This document shows positions 7,394 through 44,912 of a stretch of 64,000 nt of DNA, piece after piece. The stretch is from assembly GCA_951813255.1 (NCBI GenBank), contig OX638353.1:3084782-3148781 (forward strand), read 5' to 3'. This DNA comes from an uncultured Dehalococcoidia bacterium. GTDB lineage: Bacteria > Chloroflexota > Dehalococcoidia > Lucifugimonadales > JAAXIE01. The position numbers and the translations under genes are program-made. The notes under the pieces are model-generated. The model did not search any database, was not told the origin of the DNA, and saw only the letters and a list, made by a program, of their open reading frames with translations. The stretch's first letter is position 1, and every line of letters begins with the position of its first letter.

Positions 7394-8728
7394 TTAGGCC
7401 GCGCCGTCGAACTCCTCTTCTTTGGCTAGGTTGCGCATGAACTTCAGGTACTCGTCGCGGGACATTTCGGGTTGGTGGCGAGACAGCACGTTGCGGCCTT
7501 GGCTTGCACCGTCGGCGAGCAGGTCGACAGCGGTGGTGGCTAGGGCCTTGGCCGCCGTAATTACTGCCAAGCTGTAGTCGCGTATCACGTAGTCGGCGCC
7601 GTGACCCAAGCCCGTGGCCCCGCCTACGTAGGGATGGAGGACGGGCATCAGGTAGCTCACGTCGCCCATGTCGGTGGAGCCGGTGCGGTGGGCTGCGTAG
7701 CCGACGTTGTCCTCGCCCACGAGGGACATGGCGTTGGAGCGGAACAGGTCGGCTAGGTTGTTGTCCTGCTTCATGGGGAGGTAGCCGGGGATGGTCTGGA
7801 TGTTGACCTTGGCGCCGACAGCCATGGCGCCGGCACGAAGGGCGCGGTCGACCTTGGCGTTGGCGTCCATGATGGCGTCGAGGGTCTTGCCACGGACGAA
7901 GGTCTCCATGCGGACATCGGCAGGCACGGCGCTGACCGCCTCGCCACCCTTGGTGATGATGGGGTGGACGCGGACGGTGTCGTCGTCCTTGAAGGTCTCG
8001 CGGTTGGCGTGAATGCCAGCCATGGCGAGGTGGGCAGCGTTCAGGGCGTTGATGCCGAGGTGGGGCGCGCCTCCGGCGTGGGCGCCCCGGCCTATGAACT
8101 GGATTTTCTTGGCGACGGTGCCGTTATTGGTGCCGCTGATGCAGAGTTGGCCTTCGTCGTGGTTGCTGGTGGTGTGGCACATCATGGCCATGTGGACGTC
8201 GTCGAACTCACCGAGGCGTATGAACTCGGGCTTGCCACCTAGGAACTCGATCTTTCCCTCACGGCGGAGGCCGTCGCGGTACTCGATCTCGATGTACTCC
8301 TCGGCGGGGACTGCCATGAATATCAGGCGGCCGCTGAGTTCCTCCAGCACGCGGGACTGGCGGAGGGCCGCTGCTGCACCCAGCATCATTCCGATCTGGG
8401 CGTGATGCCCGCAGGCATGGGCAGCGCCGGTCTGAGGGTCGGCATGGGGGTGCTCATTCACGATGAGGGAGTCGAGCTCGCCGATGATGGCGAGGGTAGG
8501 CCCGGAAGTTGCGCCCGTTATCTCGCCCCGCAGCCCCGTCATTGCTAGTTCCTGCCGAAAGGGTATGCCTAACTCGGCGAAGCGGTCAGCGACGACCTTG
8601 GCGGTCTTGACCTCGCGGAAGCCGGGCTCGGGGTGGCCGAGGATGGTGGTGGAGGCGCGGACGATTTCATCGGCGCGGGCGTCAATTTCGTCGATGACCC
8701 AGGCCTTGAGTTCCTCACGGGAGGCCAT
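7394..8728 (-). CDS. M20-family amidohydrolase, tandem paralog of 6006-7358
   Basis: 444 aa, collinear with the neighbour (AAHACGHHAQIGMMLGA, VHMAMMCHT, FIGRGAHAGGAPHLGINALNAA, GSTDMGDVS). Confidence 0.8.
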   Translation of the reverse strand: MASREELKAWVIDEIDARADEIVRASTTILGHPEPGFREVKTAKVVADRFAELGIPFRQELAMTGLRGEITGATSGPTLAIIGELDSLIVNEHPHADPQTGAAHACGHHAQIGMMLGAAAALRQSRVLEELSGRLIFMAVPAEEYIEIEYRDGLRREGKIEFLGGKPEFIRLGEFDDVHMAMMCHTTSNHDEGQLCISGTNNGTVAKKIQFIGRGAHAGGAPHLGINALNAAHLAMAGIHANRETFKDDDTVRVHPIITKGGEAVSAVPADVRMETFVRGKTLDAIMDANAKVDRALRAGAMAVGAKVNIQTIPGYLPMKQDNNLADLFRSNAMSLVGEDNVGYAAHRTGSTDMGDVSYLMPVLHPYVGGATGLGHGADYVIRDYSLAVITAAKALATTAVDLLADGASQGRNVLSRHQPEMSRDEYLKFMRNLAKEEEFDGAA

Positions 8729-9081
8729 GGCATCCTCCTAGTGGCACAGAGTGGGGCCGGCAGCAAGTCGGTTGGATTCTAGCAGAGGGAAGGCCAAAAG
8801 CAACCTGAGGGTTCTAGCGTGGGCTTTGAACGGCGGGGCGTAAAAGGGCGAGGATATCGGGCGCTAGAGGGGCAGGGCTGCCTCTCCGGGGTAGAGAATT
8901 TTGCGTACAACAGCGTAGCTGTGGCGCATGTTTTTGTATCTGGAATTGTATGCATTGTCCGCATTTTCCTTTCTGCGCAGCTAGGGCAATTTGTCCGCAT
9001 TTTGCGGCCCGACTGTGTCGGGTGTACCGGCTGAGGCTGTCTGCGATCCCACGGGCACTGCCTCCTGAAGGATGGGGCAAG

Positions 9082-30758: not shown

Positions 30759-31028
30759 TCATTGTGCATTGAGGTCATCGATCAAACGAGCGACCTCCGC
30801 TAATTGGACGTCAGAGAGCTCCTGCAATCTGGCTGTCAGGTTGGACGGTACGCTCGCCGATTCATCCAGCCTATCTTGGACGTCATCGTAGTCTCCACTG
30901 GCTAGGCGTTCCTGCTCTTGCTGGGCCTCATGATCATCGGGAGCGTCGGGATGCCGGTCAGGGTCGATGAGTCGGAATATCTCTTCCTCATCATCGCCGC
31001 TTCCATATATGGACCTAATGCTGGTCAT
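30759..31028 (-). CDS. hypothetical hyper-acidic 89-aa protein coupled to the Panacea-domain gene
   Basis: ATG shares one nt with the upstream TAA (TAATG). About 24 Asp/Glu, 0 Lys, 7 Arg. The C-terminal LQELSDVQLAEVARLIDDL helix is reminiscent of addiction-module components. Confidence 0.45.
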   Translation of the reverse strand: MTSIRSIYGSGDDEEEIFRLIDPDRHPDAPDDHEAQQEQERLASGDYDDVQDRLDESASVPSNLTARLQELSDVQLAEVARLIDDLNAQ

Positions 31029-31492
31029 TATCCTTGCTGTTGTTCGATCAGCGCAGCGTAGTAGTCTCTGATAACGTGGTTGTGGATGATCTGCCTTCGC
31101 TTATCCCGTCGATAAGTCTGTTCCCACGGCGAGTTTTCTACGTGGGTCATCCGGGATAGGCGAGTCCCGTCAAGTTCCCCATATCGCTTCCAAACAACCC
31201 GAATCACTTTCTCTTCCTGATCACTGAAGGTGGTCTCCTCCGTCAAGATAGGCTCCGTGATCCGGTCTCCACCGTAGTGTTTCAGCTCGTGGTATAGTGC
31301 CCTGATGACTGGGCCATGTTGCCATGATTCGACGGCGTCTTGGAACAAAGGTCCATTGCCTAGCCCTAGCATCCATGCGTGGCAGAAGTACGTCAGCTTC
31401 TGTGCCTTCATGGGCGTGATGGGGGTCTCGTCTACTATAGATAACCGGATTAGTTTATCAGCGACTGCTAGGGCACTATGCCGCGCACCCAC
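31028..31492 (-). CDS. DUF4065 / Panacea-domain protein (SocA/GepA-like antitoxin-type)
   Basis: 154 aa from GTG with GGAGGTG RBS. ITPMKAQKLTYFCHAWMLGLGNGPLFQDAVESWQHGPVIRALYHELKHYG matches the DUF4065 core (KLxKLxYfa...fxAWxxGPV). Confidence 0.7.
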   Translation of the reverse strand: MGARHSALAVADKLIRLSIVDETPITPMKAQKLTYFCHAWMLGLGNGPLFQDAVESWQHGPVIRALYHELKHYGGDRITEPILTEETTFSDQEEKVIRVVWKRYGELDGTRLSRMTHVENSPWEQTYRRDKRRQIIHNHVIRDYYAALIEQQQG

Positions 31493-34798: not shown

Positions 34799-34906
34799 GA
34801 GAGAGATTATAGCCTCGGCACCTATGGGGGCTCAAATGAGATGACATGCGAAATGGGGCGTGCAAGAATGCTCCGGGCAGAAGCTCTGAGCGAATGGGGG
34901 AGTCTC

Positions 34907-36034
34907 ATGCAGCCTGGTACCTCAGGGTCAAACTTCGAGCGGGTCGGCAGCGTCGAGCCGGAACGCGACAGCTTGGGCGCGATTATCGAAGCAGGACCGC
35001 AGACGAATCAGCCACTCCACAAGTATGGCCGAGGTCCGTTCTGTAGGTTTCGGATTGCTCAGGGGCATAACTGGCAGCGTAGCGGAGTATACGTTCTGAC
35101 AGTGAACGGAGTGGCCCACTACGTGGGCGAGTGCAAGAACCTGGCTATGATTTGGGGGCACGTCGGTCACATAGGGACGCGAGCGGTCGAGGCGGGCGGG
35201 CAGCAGACCTTCTGCCGTTTGAACACGTTGATACTTGACGAGGCGAAACGGGGATCTGAACTGGTCTTGTGGTTCCAAGCCGTTGAAGATGCTGGCGAGC
35301 GCCGAGCTTTGAAGGCCCAACTGATTGGCTCGCGGAATCCGGCTTGGAACCTGCCTGTTCGAGACTCCTCGCGCGCCATTTCACCTCCTCCCCGACGTCG
35401 TCACGCACCTTCGCGGATTGAGCAGCCTTCTCAGGTGGTAACTCGCCCGTCTGTTGCTCCGGAGGAGGCGGAGACTCCTACACGTCAGGGGCCGGGCATT
35501 CTTTCCGCAATCAAGAGCCTTCTCGGCATGGAGCGCCCCGACATAGAAGAAAGTGCATCCTCAAACGACCGTCGCTTCGGCGGTTTGCTATTCTCGTACG
35601 TCGGCCGCATCCAGCCAGAACAGGATGCTCGCGGTCAGGTTATCGAGGAGTATCCGCAACGCAAGTTCCGCAACGTGAAGAACCTGCCTCTTAGCAGATA
35701 CGGCTCCGGGCCCTTCTGCCGCTTTCGAGTGGGGCAGGGATGGCAGCGCAGCGGAGTCTATGCCCTCGTGTGTGGCACCGAGGTCCGCTACATCGGAGAT
35801 GCGGTGAACTTGGAACGTCGATGGGGTTACATGGGTTATGGGCAGATATCGCCCCGAGCCTGCTACCAAGGAGGCCAAGACACCAACTGTCGCATCAACA
35901 ACCTAATTCTTCAGGAGACCAAAGCTGGTAGAGAGTTCCACCTGTGGTTCCATCCAGTAGAGGGGCAGAAGCACGTCCGACGCGCTGTTGAAGCGCAACT
36001 GATGGCGTCCCTTCAACCCCCATGGAACCGGTAG
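34907..36034 (+). CDS. internally duplicated GIY-YIG-like nuclease-domain protein
   Basis: Two units of about 145 aa (about 34934-35353 and 35591-36031), each with YGxGPFCRFR, GVYxL-x8-Y(V/I)G and (K/E)AQL(I/M)xxxxPxWN, joined by an Arg/Pro/Ser-rich linker. ATG 34907 has a GGGGGAG RBS; the ORF can extend to 34841. Confidence 0.6.
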   Translation: MQPGTSGSNFERVGSVEPERDSLGAIIEAGPQTNQPLHKYGRGPFCRFRIAQGHNWQRSGVYVLTVNGVAHYVGECKNLAMIWGHVGHIGTRAVEAGGQQTFCRLNTLILDEAKRGSELVLWFQAVEDAGERRALKAQLIGSRNPAWNLPVRDSSRAISPPPRRRHAPSRIEQPSQVVTRPSVAPEEAETPTRQGPGILSAIKSLLGMERPDIEESASSNDRRFGGLLFSYVGRIQPEQDARGQVIEEYPQRKFRNVKNLPLSRYGSGPFCRFRVGQGWQRSGVYALVCGTEVRYIGDAVNLERRWGYMGYGQISPRACYQGGQDTNCRINNLILQETKAGREFHLWFHPVEGQKHVRRAVEAQLMASLQPPWNR

Positions 36035-36087: not shown

Positions 36088-36339
36088 TCAATTGTCACCT
36101 GCTTGAGGGTGAGAGGGGCTTGTGGCAATGGAACGGGCCTTTTGCAAGAAATCGCGCAGCGACCAGGACGCCCCGTCTATCTCGATGGCTACGACATGAT
36201 CTTCGGCATCGTAGTCCAACACCACCCCTCCCGCTACCTCAATTGAGTAGGTGCTGGGAGACTCGCCGATTTGAACACGCAGCATGTCAGAAGTGATGTC
36301 GTAGACGACTTCGGGTTCTTGTACTATCTCCTTAGCCAT
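36088..36339 (-). CDS. DUF2283 domain protein
   Basis: VVYDITSDMLRVQIGE...VVLDYDAEDHVVAIEI, immediately downstream of valS on the same strand. The ORF may extend to 36357. Confidence 0.55.
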   Translation of the reverse strand: MAKEIVQEPEVVYDITSDMLRVQIGESPSTYSIEVAGGVVLDYDAEDHVVAIEIDGASWSLRDFLQKARSIATSPSHPQAGDN

Positions 36340-36359
36340 TTCTCTGCTTCCGAACATCT

Positions 36360-39143
36360 TTACCCCAGCTGCGCCAGCAACTCCTCCAGTTGTTCCTTCC
36401 GCGTAAGGTGGGCCTGCTGCTGGTTTTCCATCCGCTGCCGCACCTCCGCGGGGGCCTTGGCGCGGAAATCCTCGTTGCCCAGTTGACCCGTCAGTCTGTC
36501 GATCTGCTTGAGGAGGTCGCTGTGTTCCTTCTCCAGCTTGATGCGGTCCTGACCTTCGGGCTTCGTGTCTGCTAGGGGCAGCCAGATACGGGCGCTGGCG
36601 TAGCCGTGGGCCTCAGCGCCTCCCGCATGGAAGAGAGCATACTGAGTGGTGTCCGTGCTGGGGGTGGCGCCTCCGGGCTGGACCACCGTTAGGTCCGATA
36701 TACGGGCCAAGCTCTTGATCGCCGCAGCTTCGGAGGATATTGCCTCGTAGAAGGATGCTGCCACCGCCGCTTGCACCTGCTCACTCGGCCCGTCGATGGC
36801 AACAGTGGCCTCGATTTGCTGTCCAGCGGGAATCTTCTCCTCGGCGCGATAGTTCCGCACTTGGGTGATGATGTCCTGTACCAGGTTCAACTCGGCCTCG
36901 ACGGCTGCGTCGATGGCAGCGCGTTCGGCCTTGGGATAGTCGGAGACCATGATGGAATCGGGCAGGCTTGCCGGGTTGGGGACATGAGGCTTGAGCCTCT
37001 GCCATATCTCCTCCGTGATGAAGGGCATGAAGGGGTGGAGCAGACGCAACGTCTGCTCCAACACGTGGGCAAGCACCGGCAGCGGGGACTCGGATTCAGG
37101 GTCCCGCAGACGCAGCTTGGCCAGCTCAATGTACCAGTCGCAAAACTCGTGCCAGATGAACTCGTACAGCTCGCGTTGAGCTTCACCCAGTTCGAAGTGT
37201 TCCAGATAACCGTTGACGGCGTCGGCGACCTGGTTCAAGCGACTGATTATCCAGCGGTCTTCACGGTGTGTCGGGGCCAGTGGGGAGGCGTGGCCATTGG
37301 AGGCATCAGCCCCCTCCATGCTCACCAGCAGGAAGCGCGAGGCGTTCCACAGCTTGTTGGCGAAGTTGCGGCTGGCTTCCAGCTTGCCATCGGTCAACCG
37401 CAGGTCGTTCCCCGGCGAAGTGCCAGTCGTGAGAGCGAAGCGCAGGGCATCGGTGCCATACTGGTCGACCAGGAGCAGGGGGTCCATGGCGTTGCCCCGG
37501 CTCTTGCTCATCTTGGCCCCGTTGGCGTCACGAATCAGGCCGTGCAGGTAGACAGTGTGGAAGGGCTCGTGGCCCATGTTCTCAATGCCGAGCATGATCA
37601 TGCGGGCTACCCAGAAGAAGAGGATGTCGTAGCCCGTCTCCATGACCGCAGTGGGATAGAAATAGTCCAAGTCCTCGGTGTTATCAGGCCACCCAAGCGT
37701 TGAGTGAGTCCACAGCCCGGAGCTGAACCAAGTGTCCAGCACGTCCTGGTCCTGCTCCACATTGGCAGAACCGCACTTGCTGCACTGCCCAATCTCATCC
37801 ACCGATGCCATCTCGGCCCCACAGGCACGGCAGTACCACACAGGAATCCGGTGGCCCCACCATAGCTGGCGGCTGATGCACCAGTCGCGTATGTTCTCCA
37901 GCCAGTTGAGATACACCCGGCCAAAGCGGTCAGGCACAATGCGGATGCGCCCTTCGGCCACGGCTGCATACGCCCGCCCAGCGATGGAGGCTGGGTCATC
38001 GTGGCTGCCCACGTTCAGGAACCACTGCACGCTGATCAGGGGCTCCAAAACACTGGAGCAGCGCTGGCACTGCCCCACGGAGTGGTTGTACGGTTCGACT
38101 TTTTCCAGCAGGCCTTCCCGCTCCAGTTGGGCCACGACTTCGCGACGCGCTTCGAAGCGGTCGTACCCTGCATAGGGCCCGCCCTCTGACGTGATGTGCC
38201 CGTTCGGCCCAATCACCGTTACCGCGGGAAGGTTGTGGCGCTGCCCGATTTCGAAGTCGACGGGGTCATGGCCAGGGGTGACCTTGAGGCATCCGGTGCC
38301 GAACTCAGGCTGTATGGCCTCATCGCCCACGATGGGTATGGAGCGCCCAATGATGGGCAGGGTCGCATCGCGCCCCACCAAGTGGCTGTACCGCTGGTCA
38401 TCCGGGTGCACTGCGACGCCCGTGTCGCCCAGCATCGTCTCGGGCCGGGTGGTGGCAACGGTGACGTGACCATCGTCGCCCCCGTCCTTGGAGGCCAGCG
38501 GATAACGGATGTGGTAAAGAGCGCCTTCGTGCTCCTCGTGCTCCACCTCAAGGTCGGAAAGGGCCGTGGAGCAGCGGGGACACCAGTTGATGATGCGCTC
38601 GCCACGGTAGATGAGGCCCTTGTTGTAGAGGTTGACGAAGGTGGTGCGGACAGCCTTGGCCGGGCCGGCGTCCAAGGTGAAACGCAGGCGGGACCAGTCG
38701 CAGGATGCCCCAAGGCGCTTGTGCTGCTCGTCGATGGTGTTCCCGTACAGTTCGACCCACTGCCATACGCGGTCCAGAAAGGCTTCCCGCCCCAGTTCCT
38801 CGCGGCTGGTGCCCTCGGAGGCAAGCTGGCGCTCCACGACCCACTGGGTGGCGATGCCAGCATGGTCCTTCCCGGGCAACCAGAGGGCAGAGTCGCCCAT
38901 CATGCGGTGCCAGCGGATGAGAACATCCTCCGTGGCTGCGGTGAGGGCATGCCCAAGATGCAGCTCGCCAGTCACGTTGGGCGGGGGCATAATCACCACG
39001 AAGGGATCCTTCCCCGACTCGATCTTGGGAGTGAACCAGCCGCCGTCCTCCCAGAGCTGGTAGATACGTGGTTCAACGTCGGCAGGGCTATAAGCCCGTG
39101 GAATATCCGCCCCAGGGCGCTCGTCAGGTCCTCGTTCTGTCAT
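36360..39143 (-). CDS. valS: valine--tRNA ligase
   Basis: 927 aa. PPPNVTGELHLGHA (HIGH) and KMSKS motifs, C-terminal coiled coil. Confidence 0.95.
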   Translation of the reverse strand: MTERGPDERPGADIPRAYSPADVEPRIYQLWEDGGWFTPKIESGKDPFVVIMPPPNVTGELHLGHALTAATEDVLIRWHRMMGDSALWLPGKDHAGIATQWVVERQLASEGTSREELGREAFLDRVWQWVELYGNTIDEQHKRLGASCDWSRLRFTLDAGPAKAVRTTFVNLYNKGLIYRGERIINWCPRCSTALSDLEVEHEEHEGALYHIRYPLASKDGGDDGHVTVATTRPETMLGDTGVAVHPDDQRYSHLVGRDATLPIIGRSIPIVGDEAIQPEFGTGCLKVTPGHDPVDFEIGQRHNLPAVTVIGPNGHITSEGGPYAGYDRFEARREVVAQLEREGLLEKVEPYNHSVGQCQRCSSVLEPLISVQWFLNVGSHDDPASIAGRAYAAVAEGRIRIVPDRFGRVYLNWLENIRDWCISRQLWWGHRIPVWYCRACGAEMASVDEIGQCSKCGSANVEQDQDVLDTWFSSGLWTHSTLGWPDNTEDLDYFYPTAVMETGYDILFFWVARMIMLGIENMGHEPFHTVYLHGLIRDANGAKMSKSRGNAMDPLLLVDQYGTDALRFALTTGTSPGNDLRLTDGKLEASRNFANKLWNASRFLLVSMEGADASNGHASPLAPTHREDRWIISRLNQVADAVNGYLEHFELGEAQRELYEFIWHEFCDWYIELAKLRLRDPESESPLPVLAHVLEQTLRLLHPFMPFITEEIWQRLKPHVPNPASLPDSIMVSDYPKAERAAIDAAVEAELNLVQDIITQVRNYRAEEKIPAGQQIEATVAIDGPSEQVQAAVAASFYEAISSEAAAIKSLARISDLTVVQPGGATPSTDTTQYALFHAGGAEAHGYASARIWLPLADTKPEGQDRIKLEKEHSDLLKQIDRLTGQLGNEDFRAKAPAEVRQRMENQQQAHLTRKEQLEELLAQLG

Positions 39144-39572: not shown

Positions 39573-39929
39573 CTACCCTCTCAGTGGGACGGACTCAAGC
39601 TCTTGATCTATGGGATTGACCTTGAATCCAAGAATCTCCAAAGACGTGGCCCCAAGTAGGACTTGAGTGTCCTCCGGCCCAAACCATATGGGGCACGGAG
39701 ACTTCTTACCCTGGCACTCTATCATCACCATGCCAACATCCCGCCACTCGATCGAGTCATTGCCAATTACTACCATATCCTTTTCAGGTAAGGGGTGGAC
39801 GCTCAGTTCATGCAACATAGTCGCAGGAGCCTTGGACTTGGTAGCTCCGGTATCGACCAACACCTCAACCTGTCTGGCCTCACCACCATTGACATTGGAT
39901 ATATGTATATACGTTACGACTGATCCCAC
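39573..39929 (-). CDS. stand-alone retropepsin-like (clan AA) aspartyl protease domain protein, second copy
   Basis: VLVDTGAT, CPIWFGPE and LLGATSLEILGFKVNP align with 15136-15486. GTG 39929 (AGGAAG/GAGGAG upstream) gives 118 aa, matching the paralog's 116 aa. The track ORF extends to 40196. Confidence 0.6.
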   Translation of the reverse strand: MGSVVTYIHISNVNGGEARQVEVLVDTGATKSKAPATMLHELSVHPLPEKDMVVIGNDSIEWRDVGMVMIECQGKKSPCPIWFGPEDTQVLLGATSLEILGFKVNPIDQELESVPLRG

Positions 39930-40322
39930 ACTTAAAGCTTCCTGCTCCTCATAATTGGATCGAGCGGGGTTCGACGTCGGCTGGGTTGTAAGCGCGTAGA
40001 ATGTCAGCGCTGGGGCGCTGCTCACACACACACGCATGGGGAACGCCGTGACGGAGGCATCACCCAGGAACGATGAACTAATGGCAAAGACTTCCGGCAA
40101 GGAAGCATGCAGGGCTGGACCATGGTTCATCTGGGGGCCTACCACCAAGAAGAAGAAGGATACGACCATAGTGGCGGCGACGGGCAGGTCTGGCATTGGG
40201 CCATCCTGTTACCCTCATGCGATACTCATACATTGGAGCGAGCATCGAGCTGAGGGAGCGCACCGTCACTTCGGAGCGCGAGAAATGGACCATCCCAACC
40301 GGATAACTGAGGATGATTTGTC

Positions 40323-42388: not shown

Positions 42389-43015
42389 ATGGACCAACAG
42401 CCCACGCACAACACCCCTTTTCGCTGCCGCCCCTGCGTCCTCATCTTCAGGCCCAGCCCCAACCCCACCATCGACGTCGTCCGTCTCCGCAAGTCCCTCA
42501 GTTACGACAACGACGTCTTCCGTTGCGCCCGCTGCGGCCTCCTCTTCAGCCCCCCAACCCTCTCTCACCTCTCCGTTCGTCCTGAAGTCGAAGGACACGC
42601 TCCTCAGCTACGACGTGAGACAAAAAAACCCAAGCTGAACAGCTACGAGCGTGAGACAAATGAGACCGCTTCCGCCCCCGAAAAAAAGTGCGCCAGCTAC
42701 GGCATAGGCCGCCCCTCGGCGCCTCGGTTCGTCCCGAATCGCCCCCCAAACTGCTTCTCCCAGATACGGCGTGAGACAGCAAAATCCAAGCTGAACAGCT
42801 ACGCACGTGAGACAGATGAGACAGGAAATAGCTACGAAAAACAAACTTTCAGCTACGACCGTTGTCTTACCCCTATCTGCAAGTCACCCCAGACCCGTCC
42901 CCAAAATCACGCCTCCCAGCTACGGCGTGAGACAGCAAAATCCAAGCTGAACAGCTACGCACGTGAGACAAGTGAGATCCGCCCCTCATTCCACACCTCG
43001 GAGGTGACAAGATGA
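42389..43015 (+). CDS. possible zinc-ribbon protein whose 3' half spans the repeat array (coding status uncertain)
   Basis: ATG 42389 with GGAGGTG RBS. N-terminus FRCRPC-x27-FRCARCG (CxxC...CxxC). The stop overlaps the terS ATG (ATGA). The C-terminal half is encoded by the 156-bp-period repeats. Confidence 0.35.
   Translation: MDQQPTHNTPFRCRPCVLIFRPSPNPTIDVVRLRKSLSYDNDVFRCARCGLLFSPPTLSHLSVRPEVEGHAPQLRRETKKPKLNSYERETNETASAPEKKCASYGIGRPSAPRFVPNRPPNCFSQIRRETAKSKLNSYARETDETGNSYEKQTFSYDRCLTPICKSPQTRPQNHASQLRRETAKSKLNSYARETSEIRPSFHTSEVTR
42603..42978 (+). repeat. array of three ~64-bp conserved blocks at an exact 156-bp period, each with two CAGCTACG-N2-3-CGTGAGACA motifs
   Basis: Full motifs start at 42605, 42640, 42761, 42796, 42917 and 42952. 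Degenerate half-sites at 42694, 42829 and 42850. 42765-42814 is identical to 42921-42970. Confidence 0.85.
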
Positions 43016-43434
43016 GTCGCAAGCAGGACCGGAAGAAACGCGCCTCCAAGAAGATTGCCAACAACACGGGGACCGTCTACGACGCCAGCCGCCGCTCAGC
43101 TAGCCAGCACAGGTTCCTCACTGCCCACCAGTTGGGTGCTCCCACCACGCAGGCCGCCCAAATCGCCGGAGTCTCCAGGGCCACCCTCTACCGCTGGCGC
43201 GATGAGGACCCCGAATTCGCCCAAGCCTGGCTCGAGTCCCGAGACAAGTCCATGGAGGACCTCGAGGTCGCAGCCTACAGGCGTGCCATCCAAGGCAACG
43301 ACCGCCTCCTCATGTTCCTCCTCAAGTCCCACATGCCCCTTACCTACAACAAGCGTCAACAGCCCATCACGCCTGACAAGTCCAAGAGCTTCAATTTCTC
43401 CGACATCGCCGAGAGGTTCCGCCAATGTCAGTAA
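43012..43434 (+). CDS. terminase small subunit-like HTH protein
   Basis: 140 aa with GGAGGTG RBS. HTH (TTQAAQIAGVSRATLYRWRDEDPEFAQAW) followed by an EDLEVAAYRRAIQGNDRLLMFLLKSHMP helical region typical of small terminases. Overlaps the terL start. Confidence 0.6.
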   Translation: MSRKQDRKKRASKKIANNTGTVYDASRRSASQHRFLTAHQLGAPTTQAAQIAGVSRATLYRWRDEDPEFAQAWLESRDKSMEDLEVAAYRRAIQGNDRLLMFLLKSHMPLTYNKRQQPITPDKSKSFNFSDIAERFRQCQ

Positions 43435-44912
43435 AACTCGTCCCTCCCAGACCCACCGTCAAGCAGGACGTCTCCACGCCGGATCTCTCCGGCTCCCCCC
43501 TCCCCATCTCGGATGATGAGGGCCTGATTATGGAGCGTTGCCTCCGCTCCCCCAGCCTCTTCGCCCGCAATATCCTCGGCGTCCAGCTCTGGAGCAAGCA
43601 GGAAGAGGTGCTGAAGGCCCTCCAAGGCCACAGGCGCGTCGCCGTCAAGGCCGGAAATGGCCTCGGCAAAGGCTTCACCGCCGCCGTGGCCGTCCTCTGG
43701 TTCCTCACCTGCCACTCCCCCGCCATCGTCCTCACCACCGCCCCCACCGCCCGGCAGGTCCGGCACGTCCTCTGGCGGGAGATCCGCCGTCTTCATGGCA
43801 ACCATGCCGACCTTCTGGGTGGCAGGATGTTCAACACCCGGTTCGAAATTGCCGACGATCGTTTTGCCCTAGGCCTGTCCACCGACGAGGCGGACCAGTT
43901 CCAAGGGTTCCATTCCCCCAACATGCTGATCGTGGTGGACGAGGCGGAGGGTGTAACCGAACCCATCTACGATGCCATCGAGGCAGTGATGACCACGGGC
44001 AACTGCAAGCTGCTGCTCATCGGCAACCCCACCAGCGACTCCGGAACATTCCGACGCGCTTTCCACGAAGACCGGCGTATCTTCCAAAACATCACCATAT
44101 CAGCCCTGGAGTCGCCCAACGTGGAGCAACAGGACGTGGTCATCCCTGGGCTGACCACAGGCGAATGGGTGGCGGAGCGCAGAACGATGTGGGGCGAGGG
44201 AAGCCCGATGTACCAAGCGCGGGTGCTGGGCAACTTCTGCGACCACCCCCAAGACAACCTCATTCCCCTGAGCAAAATCGAGCAGGCTATTTCTCTCTAT
44301 GCCGAGGGCTGCGATGATGACCCGCTGGCAGAGGAAGAGGAAGGAGCGAGTGAGCCGGCTGTGCTGGCGCCCACCGTACTGGCGCCCACCGTACTGGCAG
44401 TAGACGTAGCGCGCTTCGGCCCCGACCAGAGCGTGCTGCTGCTAGCCAACTCCAACAGGGTCCTGGACATTCAGACTCACCAAGGACTGGACACCATGGA
44501 ACTGACAGGCCGCATCGTGGACGCGTACCGCCAGTGGGCCCCCGAACGGATCGTGGTGGACGAAATCGGCATCGGAGCAGGCGTATTGGACCGCCTGAAG
44601 GAGCTTGACCTGCCAGTGTCGGGCATCAATGTAGGACGGCCCGCCCGGCAACGGCGTCAGTTCGCCAACCTGCGGGCCGAAGGCTACTGGAGCCTCTACG
44701 AGCTGTTCAACCAGGGAGCGATAGCAATCCCCAACGACCCCGAACTTGCCGGCCAGCTATCCTCCCTGCGCCACCGCTACAACAGCAAGGGCCAGTTCCT
44801 CATCGAACCCAAAGAGGAAACCCGTACCCGGGGCCTGCCATCCCCCGACAAAGCAGACGCCCTCATGCTGGCGTTCTTGAGGAACACGGGCGGTGTGAGG
44901 TTGCATACGTAA
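43425..44912 (+). CDS. terminase large subunit-like ATPase-nuclease
   Basis: Deviant Walker A (KAGNGLGKGF), Walker B (MLIVVDEAEG), LLLIGNPTS coupling motif. C-terminal RNase-H-like nuclease acidic motifs (LAVDVARFGPD, VVDEIGIGAG, SPDKADAL). Confidence 0.75.
   Translation: MSVKLVPPRPTVKQDVSTPDLSGSPLPISDDEGLIMERCLRSPSLFARNILGVQLWSKQEEVLKALQGHRRVAVKAGNGLGKGFTAAVAVLWFLTCHSPAIVLTTAPTARQVRHVLWREIRRLHGNHADLLGGRMFNTRFEIADDRFALGLSTDEADQFQGFHSPNMLIVVDEAEGVTEPIYDAIEAVMTTGNCKLLLIGNPTSDSGTFRRAFHEDRRIFQNITISALESPNVEQQDVVIPGLTTGEWVAERRTMWGEGSPMYQARVLGNFCDHPQDNLIPLSKIEQAISLYAEGCDDDPLAEEEEGASEPAVLAPTVLAPTVLAVDVARFGPDQSVLLLANSNRVLDIQTHQGLDTMELTGRIVDAYRQWAPERIVVDEIGIGAGVLDRLKELDLPVSGINVGRPARQRRQFANLRAEGYWSLYELFNQGAIAIPNDPELAGQLSSLRHRYNSKGQFLIEPKEETRTRGLPSPDKADALMLAFLRNTGGVRLHT

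Follow-up and report, generated by a model that had tools for sequence, protein, structure and literature searches.

Each domain of a GIY-YIG nuclease has a single active site, and the manner in which such enzymes cut both DNA strands, or confine themselves to one, is a recurring question. T4 EndoII, I-TevI and I-BmoI, Eco29kI, Hpy188I and Cfr42I represent differing solutions to strand cutting. A gene in a 64-kb stretch of Dehalococcoidia DNA, here called the window, raises the question in another form. Its product carries two GIY-YIG-like units in one chain, and the catalytic residues are complete in the second unit only. A natural pair of one live and one dead unit would be a genetically fixed answer to the strand question.

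The gene and its internal duplication

The coding sequence of the two-unit protein, 34907..36034 (+, stop codon included), was defined from the ORF listing and the N-termini of homologues and gives 375 residues counted from M23. An in-frame upstream ATG at 34841 opens a longer ORF of 397 residues (34841..36034, +), which is the basis of the residue numbering throughout. The true start is likely to be M23 at 34907, the start already chosen in the initial annotation, because a Shine-Dalgarno-like GGGGAG can be read in the sequence 5 nt upstream of this ATG (34897..34902, +) and the homologues all start at the corresponding residue.

The protein is comprised of unit 1, a degenerate EndoII-like GIY-YIG domain (residues 30-171; 34928..35353, +), a linker (residues 172-247; 35354..35581, +) and unit 2, likewise an EndoII-like GIY-YIG domain but complete in its catalytic residues (residues 248-397; 35582..36031, +). 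Self-comparison aligns residues ~30-171 with ~248-397 at 72 identities in 148 positions (49%, E 7e-45), far above chance. The two repeats of about 145 residues described in the initial annotation are thereby borne out, and every motif listed there was found. These are YGRGPFCRFR in unit 1 and YGSGPFCRFR in unit 2 on the N-terminal side, the GIY-YIG pair SGVYVL..YVG and SGVYAL..YIG, LWF in both units, and the C-terminal pair KAQLI..PAWN and EAQLM..PPWN. The block given as NxCR(L/I)N is also present, as TFCRLN and TNCRIN respectively, but T(F/N)CR(L/I)N is its more exact form. The duplicated architecture is kept in ~28 homologous proteins, and the 64-kb window holds no further copy of the nuclease unit outside this gene.

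The linker, described in the initial annotation as rich in Arg, Pro and Ser and about 75 residues long, measures 76 residues, of which P, R and S account for 11 each. AlphaFold predicts it to be disordered (pLDDT 29-39, below 50). Among homologues it varies between 37 and 115 residues, with a mean pairwise identity of 32% and no conserved column.

Fold and superfamily membership

The AlphaFold (AF2) model contains two domains with pLDDT above 90 (92-97 in unit 1 and 83-96 over most of the length of unit 2). Both units, as the structure prediction proposed in the initial annotation was meant to reveal, have the beta-beta-alpha-alpha-beta-alpha order and the three-stranded sheet with flanking helices of the GIY-YIG fold. 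The pTM of the two-domain model is only 0.45, so the mutual placement of the domains is not confident and a pseudo-dimer is unproven. Of the covalent pseudo-dimer that had been suggested, the duplicated domains stand, one with and one without the catalytic residues, but their pairing in space is conjectural.

Foldseek matched the model to T4 EndoII (2wsh, probability 1.0) and to UvrC (1ycz, probability 0.99). The model of a single-unit relative gave UvrC at TM 0.67 and rmsd 3.2 A and EndoII at probability 1.0, and viral EndoII proteins matched as well. A single-sequence phmmer search against the PDB returned nothing real, and a profile of relatives was therefore needed. The profile of 40 single-unit relatives reached T4 EndoII with E 1.3e-5 and UvrC with E 2.6e-4, its positions 33-154 aligning with EndoII 14-139, which is nearly the whole unit. 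The phage family phrog_1111, labelled 'endonuclease', matches both units (E 1.8e-7). Searches of the protein and of each unit with Pfam, NCBIfam and PADLOC gave sub-threshold matches only. PF01541, the Pfam model recommended in the initial annotation, scored 14.5 bits against a gathering score of 22.6 and covered only residues 304-329, because the model is too distant from this family; the homologue P0027 passes it at 30.2 bits. The GIY-YIG assignment, which the Pfam model fails to recover in the window protein, is supported by the relatives' profile and by the fold matches.

Unit 2 and UvrC align in register at six positions (R327 with R39, E384 with E76, Y307 with Y19, Y317 with Y29, Y333 with Y43 and N396 with N88), and R57 of EndoII corresponds to R327. 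The Tyr pair of the GIY-YIG motif is present in both units (Y84/Y94 and Y307/Y317), as is the counterpart of UvrC N88, since N170 and N396 both lie within P-x-W-N. The Arg about 8 residues past the Gly of YIG and the Glu of the last helix are present in unit 2 and absent from unit 1. The protein qualifies for the superfamily through unit 2, whereas unit 1 belongs to it solely by its ancestry and its fold.

Catalytic residues and selection

The set in unit 2 consists of Y307, Y317, R327 (35819-35821), Y333, E384 (35990-35992) and N396, together with R339, C341 and N349 at further family positions. Unit 1 retains Y84, Y94 and N170. I104 (35150-35152) replaces the catalytic Arg and aligns with R327, K158 (35312-35314) replaces the metal-binding Glu and aligns with E384, and H110 stands where the second catalytic Tyr, the equivalent of Y333, would be. 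Two more family-invariant positions are altered, V116 replacing the Cys and F124 the Asn. Across the family unit 1 is altered at the equivalents of Y333, R339, C341 and N349, but the unit 1 of the window protein retains the equivalent of R339 as R114. The earlier observation that only unit 2 has the Arg and the Glu is therefore correct, but the degeneracy is wider than described, as it extends to the equivalents of Y333, C341 and N349.

About 170 units of the wider family follow the pattern Y-Y-R-Y-(R/K)-C-N-E-N, with the catalytic-type residues near-invariant. In the two-unit homologues unit 1 reads Y-Y-(I/V/S)-(V/I)-x-V-(H/Y/F)-K-N, so that in all of these ~28 proteins the Arg has become I, V or S and the Glu has become K. 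Neither of the two doubts raised in the initial annotation, a non-nuclease fold or poor conservation of the supposed catalytic residues, is borne out, because profile and fold are those of GIY-YIG enzymes and the residues are near-invariant in the ~170 units and consistently replaced in unit 1.

Loss of the residues has not been accompanied by loss of constraint. Mean identity among homologues is 60% for unit 1 and 66% for unit 2, and the conserved columns number 51 and 62, against none in the linker. Pairs that involve the window protein itself are saturated in dN/dS, and omega was taken from closer, unsaturated homologue pairs only, which gave 0.16-0.19 for unit 1, 0.21-0.24 for unit 2 and 0.4-1.2 for the linker. 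As judged from these sequences, purifying selection acts on unit 1 no less strongly than on unit 2, and the linker is not conserved. Unit 1 is a clean example of a pseudo-enzyme domain retained by selection. One two-unit homologue, P0067 (locus L009), has neither the Arg nor the Glu in either unit and is still under purifying selection, so the conserved function may not be catalysis.

Comparison with known enzymes

T4 EndoII (DenA, PDB 2wsh; phrog_1111) is the best match of both the profile and the fold. The match spans the N-terminal region, the GIY-YIG core and the middle region, where K76 aligns with N349 of unit 2, and at ~140 residues EndoII is similar in size to each unit. Sequence identity is only 15-21%, and the invariant motifs GPFCRF, GYGxISPRNCY and GGQxTNCRIN are peculiar to the present family. 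EndoII is a single-domain phage protein with identical active subunits, whereas the two-unit protein belongs to a cellular host and combines two diverged copies, one of them dead, in one chain. EndoII nicks unmodified cytosine DNA as a homo-oligomer, a dimer or tetramer of which only one or two sites cut, yielding mostly nicks (PMC2764454). DNA binding is improved in EndoII that lacks E118 and is poor in the R57A mutant (PMC2764454); by analogy with the latter, the Arg-less unit 1 may bind DNA weakly.

The N-terminal GIY-YIG domain of UvrC (1ycz) superimposes with TM 0.63-0.67 and rmsd 3.2-4.2 A, and the six residues in register with unit 2 are catalytic or structural. Unlike UvrC, the two-unit protein has no UvrB-binding, EndoV or HhH domains and possesses extra N-terminal and middle segments; its gene does not occur universally, and nothing in its surroundings was seen to point to repair. 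For the defence GIY-YIG enzymes CMoRE/PD-T4-3 (9u75) and SNIPE a weak fold match was seen. Both are stand-alone systems, with no methylase, in which a GIY-YIG effector is joined to a sensing or targeting module (PMC12923530; bioRxiv 10.1101/2025.11.03.685801). The two-unit protein differs from them in having no SRA-like or DUF4041/TM module, no PADLOC match and no defence-island context.

Three further groups were compared. Restriction enzymes of the Eco29kI/Hpy188I/Cfr42I type would call for an adjoining cognate methyltransferase, and none lies near this gene. A homing endonuclease of the I-TevI type is contradicted by the missing NUMOD-type domain and mobile boundaries and by synteny with valS in a distant genome. 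The Ssn family (cd10448) consists of minimal single-domain ssDNA nucleases of ~94 residues whose gene is flanked by a repeated target motif (PMC11893778). Compared with that description, the ~145-residue unit with its EndoII-type extensions is too large, and no flanking repeats were found, so that this family was rejected.

Single-chain pseudo-dimers that arose by internal duplication are represented by the C-terminal domain of Sau3AI and by monomeric tandem LAGLIDADG enzymes, and heterodimeric nicking enzymes such as Nt.BspD6I embody a comparable live/dead concept. Where one copy in such nucleases is inactive, it is a DNA-binding or allosteric partner, or limits cutting to one strand. Their folds (PD-(D/E)xK and LAGLIDADG) are unrelated to GIY-YIG. 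No described case of a live/dead duplicate within the GIY-YIG fold was found in the literature, and publications on DUF7662/DUF7669 and on tandem, duplicated or inactive GIY-YIG domains yielded no description of the two-unit architecture. This agrees with the initial annotation, which did not recognize the architecture among characterized GIY-YIG enzymes.

Family and genomic setting

Two- and three-unit forms turned up in Dehalococcoidia MAGs only, with 7 loci among 185,579 species represented by one genome each. They derive from a large, uncharacterized single-unit family of ~1,000 clusters at 50% identity that spans Bacteria and Archaea. Fusions to HEPN, NYN, ARPP-1, HTH, DUF7662 and DUF7669 domains occur among its members, and a zinc ribbon also serves as an accessory module. 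Unit 2 is 50-63% identical to, and clusters with, single-unit relatives of DUF7662-linker-unit composition (P0031-P0040). The layout is shared, an N-terminal accessory module being followed by a linker and a C-terminal catalytic unit; the relatives carry DUF7662, DUF7669, HTH or a zinc ribbon as this module, whereas here it is a dead nuclease copy. DUF7662 has no sequence match in the PDB. In its model the elements follow a winged-helix-like order, but fold matches are weak and limited to the DNA-binding domain of CodY (probability 0.16).

Architecture and copy number are unstable, with one, two or three units and tandem arrays. Degenerate paralogues without the Arg and the Glu also occur as separate genes (the L006 array, the stand-alone P0071, L021 and L025). 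Some of these adjoin active units, but the stand-alone unit-1-type genes of L021 and L025 do not. The nuclease protein diverges faster than valS (~50% versus 77% identity).

In the window, the nuclease gene is convergent with a DUF2283 gene (36088-36357, -; Pfam E 5.3e-11) that lies directly downstream of valS (36360-39143, -), which is 77% identical to an L004 gene with valyl-tRNA synthetase Pfam domains. The nuclease homologue of that locus, P0004, shares the valS neighbourhood. No DUF2283 gene was found beside nuclease homologues at E <= 1e-10, and no link to the nuclease was seen. Both neighbours had been named in the initial annotation, and the lack of an adjacent methyltransferase noted there holds for ~8 kb around the gene and for the listed neighbours of the two-unit homologues. 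No repeats, tRNA genes or GC shift indicative of a mobile element were found around the gene.

The initial annotation also proposed a survey for enrichment in defence islands. Two-unit genes lie among housekeeping genes instead (valS, cytidylate-kinase-like, CinA, gyrA, SecA, thiL and tsaBE, with polX in L004), and a defence-island setting is rejected for this subfamily on that ground. Synteny blocks are common to L001/L007 and to L008/L010/L015. An all-against-all BLAST of 388 neighbours, with Pfam and PADLOC searches of the 110 immediate ones, revealed no conserved partner gene, only scattered defence and mobile genes. The neighbours of single-unit relatives include DpdF, DrmC, DndB, SspE, GmrSD, type I S subunits and integrases. 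PADLOC gave no matches on 40 single-unit relatives, and no PADLOC model fits the family. The family lies outside PADLOC and falls below the Pfam threshold, yet it repeatedly adjoins defence genes, which makes it a candidate source of new defence effectors.

Proposed function and alternative explanations

The two-unit protein is probably an EndoII-like DNA endonuclease with a single active site, whose dead N-terminal paralogue serves as a DNA-binding or partner module. In a lineage of the Dehalococcoidia, the ~145-residue unit was duplicated and the copies were joined head to tail. The C-terminal copy keeps the one-metal centre (two Tyr, Arg, a third Tyr, Glu and Asn). In the N-terminal copy the Arg and the third Tyr are gone, Lys stands in place of the Glu, and family-invariant positions of the DNA-contacting 'middle region' have changed, but the fold is retained and conserved by selection. 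Tethered by the flexible linker at the place where the closest single-unit relatives have DUF7662, the dead domain would act as a non-catalytic nucleic-acid-binding or partner module and may imitate the other subunit in a dimer of the EndoII type, with the result that one strand would be nicked per DNA-binding event. Architecture, fold, residue pattern, conservation and distribution are observed, whereas activity of unit 2, DNA as its substrate, nicking and this role of unit 1 are inferred. The nicking, homing-like and defence roles offered in the initial annotation are likewise conjectural. Biologically, an accessory conflict-type nuclease, for defence or selfish, is most likely, if weakly supported, rather than a core repair enzyme; the patchy distribution, the HEPN/NYN/ARPP-1/HTH fusions and the defence genes near single-unit relatives speak for this role, and the housekeeping surroundings of the two-unit genes and the lack of a PADLOC match speak against it.

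Unit 1 could instead be a built-in inhibitor or immunity domain that covers the dimer interface or the DNA-binding face of the active unit. A methylase-less nuclease would then stay silent until triggered by phage infection or by proteolysis of the linker, much as in a fused toxin-antitoxin pair. The absence of a methyltransferase or other self-protection gene nearby would fit, as would the long, disordered, fast-evolving linker and the recurrence of R/E-less paralogues as separate genes, some beside active units (L006 array; P0071, L021, L025). A known autoinhibitory element of a defence GIY-YIG enzyme is the acidic loop of CMoRE (PMC12923530). We consider inhibition unlikely, however, as the AlphaFold model gives no support for intramolecular contacts (pTM 0.45), the dead domain is also fused to HEPN RNases, where paralogue-specific inhibition is impossible, and the unit-1-type genes of L021 and L025 have no active unit beside them. 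A housekeeping function outside conflict systems, in which Dehalococcoidia would have co-opted the protein as a nuclease for repair or for specific DNA structures, or for DNA binding without catalysis, is suggested by neighbours such as valS, thiL, tsaBE, polX (in L004), CinA and gyrA, by UvrC being among the closest structural relatives and by P0067, which has no catalytic residues in either unit. It is quite unlikely in view of the very patchy occurrence (7 two- or three-unit loci in the set of 185,579 single-genome species), the unstable number of units (1-3, in tandem arrays), the divergence of the protein to ~50% identity where valS is at 77%, and the fusions and defence-gene neighbours of the wider family.

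A free-standing homing-type or selfish mobile endonuclease, which would spread by cutting a specific chromosomal site, is very unlikely. The gene is solitary, has no conserved partner and occurs in at least five genomic contexts, with the L002 and L003 copies near transposases and a recombinase, and there is a weak match to TIGR01453 'group I intron endonuclease'. This match, however, scores 18.3 bits against a cutoff of 56 and covers the GIY-YIG motif only. NUMOD or other homing-type DNA-binding domains, an intron or intein context, flanking repeats and element ends were not found, the intergenic spaces are tight and the GC content matches the surroundings. The gene has the same place beside valS in a genome where valS identity has dropped to 77%, which together with the synteny blocks argues for long vertical residence.

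Relationships of the two units

In a neighbour-joining tree (BLOSUM distances, midpoint rooting, without support values) unit 2 groups with the Chloroflexota DUF7662-linker-unit proteins. The unit-1-type domains form one clade, in which stand-alone proteins and fusions to HEPN_Swt1 are also found; the dead domain thus behaves like a module in its own right. It is conceivable, and we put it forward tentatively, that the unit-1-type domain, a GIY-YIG fold without catalytic function, has been exapted into a portable module that recognizes nucleic acids or acts as a partner, and that the two-unit protein is a hard-wired nickase. If so, the module would serve in at least three settings, joined to an active GIY-YIG nuclease, joined to a HEPN_Swt1 RNase, and by itself, and would be the first described pseudo-nuclease partner domain of the GIY-YIG superfamily. 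The two-unit protein would be a naturally occurring, asymmetric enzyme of the EndoII type, made of one chain and having precisely one active site, and possibly a ready-made scaffold for strand-specific nicking enzymes.

In the same tree the unit-1 clade is sister to other degenerate sequences, unit 2 of P0067 and P0081, a grouping that may reflect attraction from shared substitutions.

Gene organization and internal duplication

The open reading frame (34841..36034, plus strand of the window) encodes 397 amino acids from its first ATG, and residue numbering follows this frame. The true start is likely M23 at 34907, as chosen in the initial annotation: GGGGAG lies 5 nt upstream and all homologues start at the equivalent residue. 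Unit 1 (residues 30-171; 34928-35353) and unit 2 (residues 248-397; 35582-36031), both on the plus strand, are joined by a 76-residue linker with 11 Pro, 11 Arg and 11 Ser. The internal duplication is real, since the two halves are identical at 72 of 148 positions (49%; BLASTP E 7e-45), and the shared motifs described earlier were all found in both units. The duplication is also old, because its trace at the nucleotide level is reduced to a 19-nt remnant.

Fold and relation to endonuclease II

The Pfam GIY-YIG model scores 14.5 bits on the window protein (cutoff 22.6) and covers residues 304-329 only; the NCBIfam model TIGR01453 reaches 18 bits where 56 are required, and PADLOC returned nothing meaningful. 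Both units match the PHROGs family phrog_1111, 'endonuclease' (E 1.8e-7). An AlphaFold2 model built from 25 homologues contains two domains with pLDDT >90, both of beta-beta-alpha-alpha-alpha-beta-alpha order, and a disordered linker (residues 171-240, pLDDT <50); the pTM of the whole model is 0.45. Foldseek matched this model in the PDB to T4 endonuclease II (EndoII, 2wsh; probability 1.0), the GIY-YIG domain of UvrC (1ycz; 0.99) and Hpy188I, and among viral models to phage 'Endonuclease II' and GIY-YIG proteins. The model of a single-unit relative gave UvrC with a TM score of 0.67 (rmsd 3.2 A) and EndoII with probability 1.0.

A sequence profile made from 40 stand-alone single-unit relatives matches EndoII over almost the whole unit (E 1.3e-5) and UvrC with E 2.6e-4. 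In the UvrC alignment every catalytic residue is in register with unit 2: Y307, Y317, R327, Y333, E384 and N396 correspond to UvrC Y19, Y29, R39, Y43, E76 and N88, respectively. R57 of EndoII aligns with R327. The family-invariant N349 is matched by K76 of the EndoII 'middle region', which has been linked to recognition and binding (PMC2764454). The two-unit protein thus resembles EndoII both by profile and by fold. On these matches the repeats are GIY-YIG domains, the fold originally proposed for them, and are of the EndoII type. Though below the Pfam threshold, the window protein joins the superfamily through unit 2, which has the fold, both Tyr, the Arg, the Glu and the Asn.

No GIY-YIG protein with a tandem or pseudo-dimeric arrangement came up in full-text literature searches, and no architecture with two GIY-YIG domains was found in excerpts of the 2006 superfamily census (PMC1564403). 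For JCVI-syn3.0, a lone 'inactivated GIY-YIG copy' has been suggested (PMC13621843).

Asymmetry of the two units

All units were aligned to one HMM and nine positions were read in each. About 170 units carry the signature Y-Y-R-Y-(R/K)-C-N-E-N, among them the second unit of every two-unit protein except one; the residues earlier called catalytic are conserved among homologues. All unit 1 sequences read Y-Y-(I/V/S)-(V/I)-(S/T/A)-V-(H/Y/F)-K-N. In the window protein R327, Y333, C341, N349 and E384 of unit 2 are replaced in unit 1 by I104, H110, V116, F124 and K158, while R339 is kept as R114. The comparison agrees with the initial annotation that Arg and Glu are lost from unit 1 and kept in unit 2; unit 1 also lacks the Tyr equivalent to UvrC Y43 and up to three more family-invariant residues.

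Unit 1 is not decaying. The mean pairwise identity of 21 full-length homologues is 60% in unit 1, 66% in unit 2 and 32% in the linker, and 51 of 144, 62 of 150 and 0 of 45 columns, respectively, are at least 90% conserved. Omega, taken from the three homologue pairs whose dS is not saturated, is 0.16-0.19 for unit 1, 0.21-0.24 for unit 2 and 0.39-1.16 for the linker. Unit 1 is folded in the model and is conserved, and three residues of the one-metal centre, Arg, Tyr and Glu, are missing from it; the linker is flexible and unconstrained.

The two-unit homologue P0067 (locus L009, 7998-8984) has neither R nor E in either unit. Its unit 2 also lacks the Tyr (signature YYQFACHKN), yet omega for this homologue is still about 0.2-0.4; the protein would have zero intact active sites.

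Distribution and origin

A word-indexed search gave about 28 two-unit homologues (340-350 amino acids, 44-61% identical), all metagenomic and none named, together with many single-unit relatives. Used as the query of an exhaustive HMMER search, the family profile matched 1,051 clusters at E <= 1e-3 (311 at E <= 1e-30). Almost all are single-unit proteins that align with its unit 2 half, and the two-unit proteins form three clusters. Among 185,579 species, represented by one genome each, two- and three-unit genes were found only in Dehalococcoidia MAGs (7 loci), and single-unit relatives in Proteobacteria, Bacillota, Planctomycetota, Chloroflexota, Bathyarchaeota, Nitrosarchaeum, Methanoperedens and others.

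Neighbour joining places all unit-1-type sequences in a single clade of 40. Among its members are dead units that stand alone (P0071, L021, L025) and others joined to the RNase domain HEPN_Swt1 (P0041, P0076, P0113); in these three metagenome proteins it is the dead domain that is fused C-terminally to the Swt1-like HEPN domain. Unit 2 groups with Chloroflexota single-unit proteins, many of which consist of the accessory domain DUF7662, a linker and a unit; the dead unit therefore occupies the place of DUF7662 in the nearest relatives. The elements of the DUF7662 model follow a winged-helix-like order, with weak fold support.

The unit architecture is still being experimented with in this lineage. 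A tandem array in Dehalococcoidia OY282385.1 (L006, 7445-9668) has a 156-residue single unit followed by a 547-residue protein of unit order 2-1-2. Its first two units are near-identical, with Glu-to-Lys and the Arg kept, a sequence pattern that indicates a recent duplication and a second path to inactivation. P0027 (L010, 7965-9758) has two dead units followed by an active one (1-1-2). At L007 (about 7975-9017) codon 8 is an in-frame stop (MGRNFAG*VFERVG), and this copy could be a pseudogene, contain a sequencing error or start further downstream.

Proposed mode of action and alternatives

The window protein is a tandem EndoII-like GIY-YIG protein in which unit 2 carries the complete catalytic residue set. 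It would have one active site, and unit 1 would be a non-catalytic DNA-binding or partner module; with such an arrangement, cleavage would likely be strand-limited (nicking), unless molecules pair. Functional analogues in other folds include Sau3AI and the tandem LAGLIDADG enzymes. EndoII, the closest characterised enzyme, makes this reading plausible by analogy: the E118 side chain hinders DNA binding and E118A binds better (PMC2764454). The Glu-to-Lys change, seen in unit 1 as well as in relatives that degenerated independently, would presumably favour contact with phosphate. Against the partner-module and nicking reading, EndoII R57A binds poorly (PMC2764454), AlphaFold does not settle how the two domains are placed relative to each other, and P0067 points to at least one lineage in which catalysis is dispensable. 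In-built auto-inhibition is an unlikely alternative. The original observation is sound and its interpretation largely right, the function being a prediction.

The gene is divergent from thiL and convergent with DUF2283 and valS. Homologue P0004 also adjoins valS, and the valS of its genome shares 77% identity with that of the window; other homologues have different syntenic blocks in common (L001/L007; L002/L003; L008/L010/L015). Most neighbours of two-unit genes are housekeeping genes, and only L002/L003 have McrBC and transposases nearby; no conserved partner gene was found across the homologue neighbourhoods. A housekeeping role in repair or DNA binding is rated as improbable. A selfish or homing enzyme is more improbable still: the GC content of the gene is that of its surroundings, flanking repeats were sought around it in the window and none were found, and an I-TevI-type homing enzyme was rejected on the missing NUMOD domain, the sub-threshold score and the synteny. 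A type II restriction enzyme was also rejected, as the gene has no methylase; none lies near it in the window, as already noted in the initial annotation. The Ssn family, with a minimal domain of about 94 amino acids and flanking repeats (PMC11893778), was rejected on those features.

The wider single-unit family

Immediate neighbours of single-unit genes include integrases, GmrSD, DndB, DpdF, DrmC, SspE, PDC-S11 and type I specificity subunits, and fusions include HEPN_Swt1, NYN RNase, ARPP-1, CpXC, HTH, DUF7662 and DUF7669. These neighbours and fusions suggest that the single-unit family may consist of conflict-system effectors; none of the PADLOC models recognises it. In P0088 an active unit occurs together with HEPN_Swt1 and DUF7662. 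In other metagenome proteins units are joined to DUF7669, NYN RNase and DUF7662 (P0143), ARPP-1 (P0171), CpXC and DUF7662 (P0142) and an XRE-type HTH (P0070), multi-effector architectures typical of conflict systems.

Other genes near the homologues and in the window

In three genomes of Dehalococcoidia the gene just upstream of the two- or three-unit gene is cytidylate-kinase-like (PF13189; L008 1931-2803, L010 7127-7939, L015 7235-7960), which could reflect shared synteny or a functional link. At L003 (3048-3882) the gene for a stand-alone DUF7662 protein of 134 amino acids immediately precedes one for a PIN-domain protein, in the manner of a toxin-antitoxin pair; next to these two are a serine recombinase and an HNH nuclease.

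In the window a SocA/Panacea antitoxin-like gene (31031-31492, minus strand; Pfam E 2.6e-19) and, directly downstream, an acidic unannotated ORF of 89 amino acids (30762-31028, minus strand) lie within a low-GC patch (0.53) and may form a toxin-antitoxin-like pair. The segment 39200-44900, of lower GC (0.52-0.55) and with ORFs lacking a Pfam match, contains a weak retropepsin-like match (39576-40196, minus strand) followed by an HTH protein (43012-43431) and an AAA_19 P-loop protein (43425-44909), and may be a mobile-element remnant.
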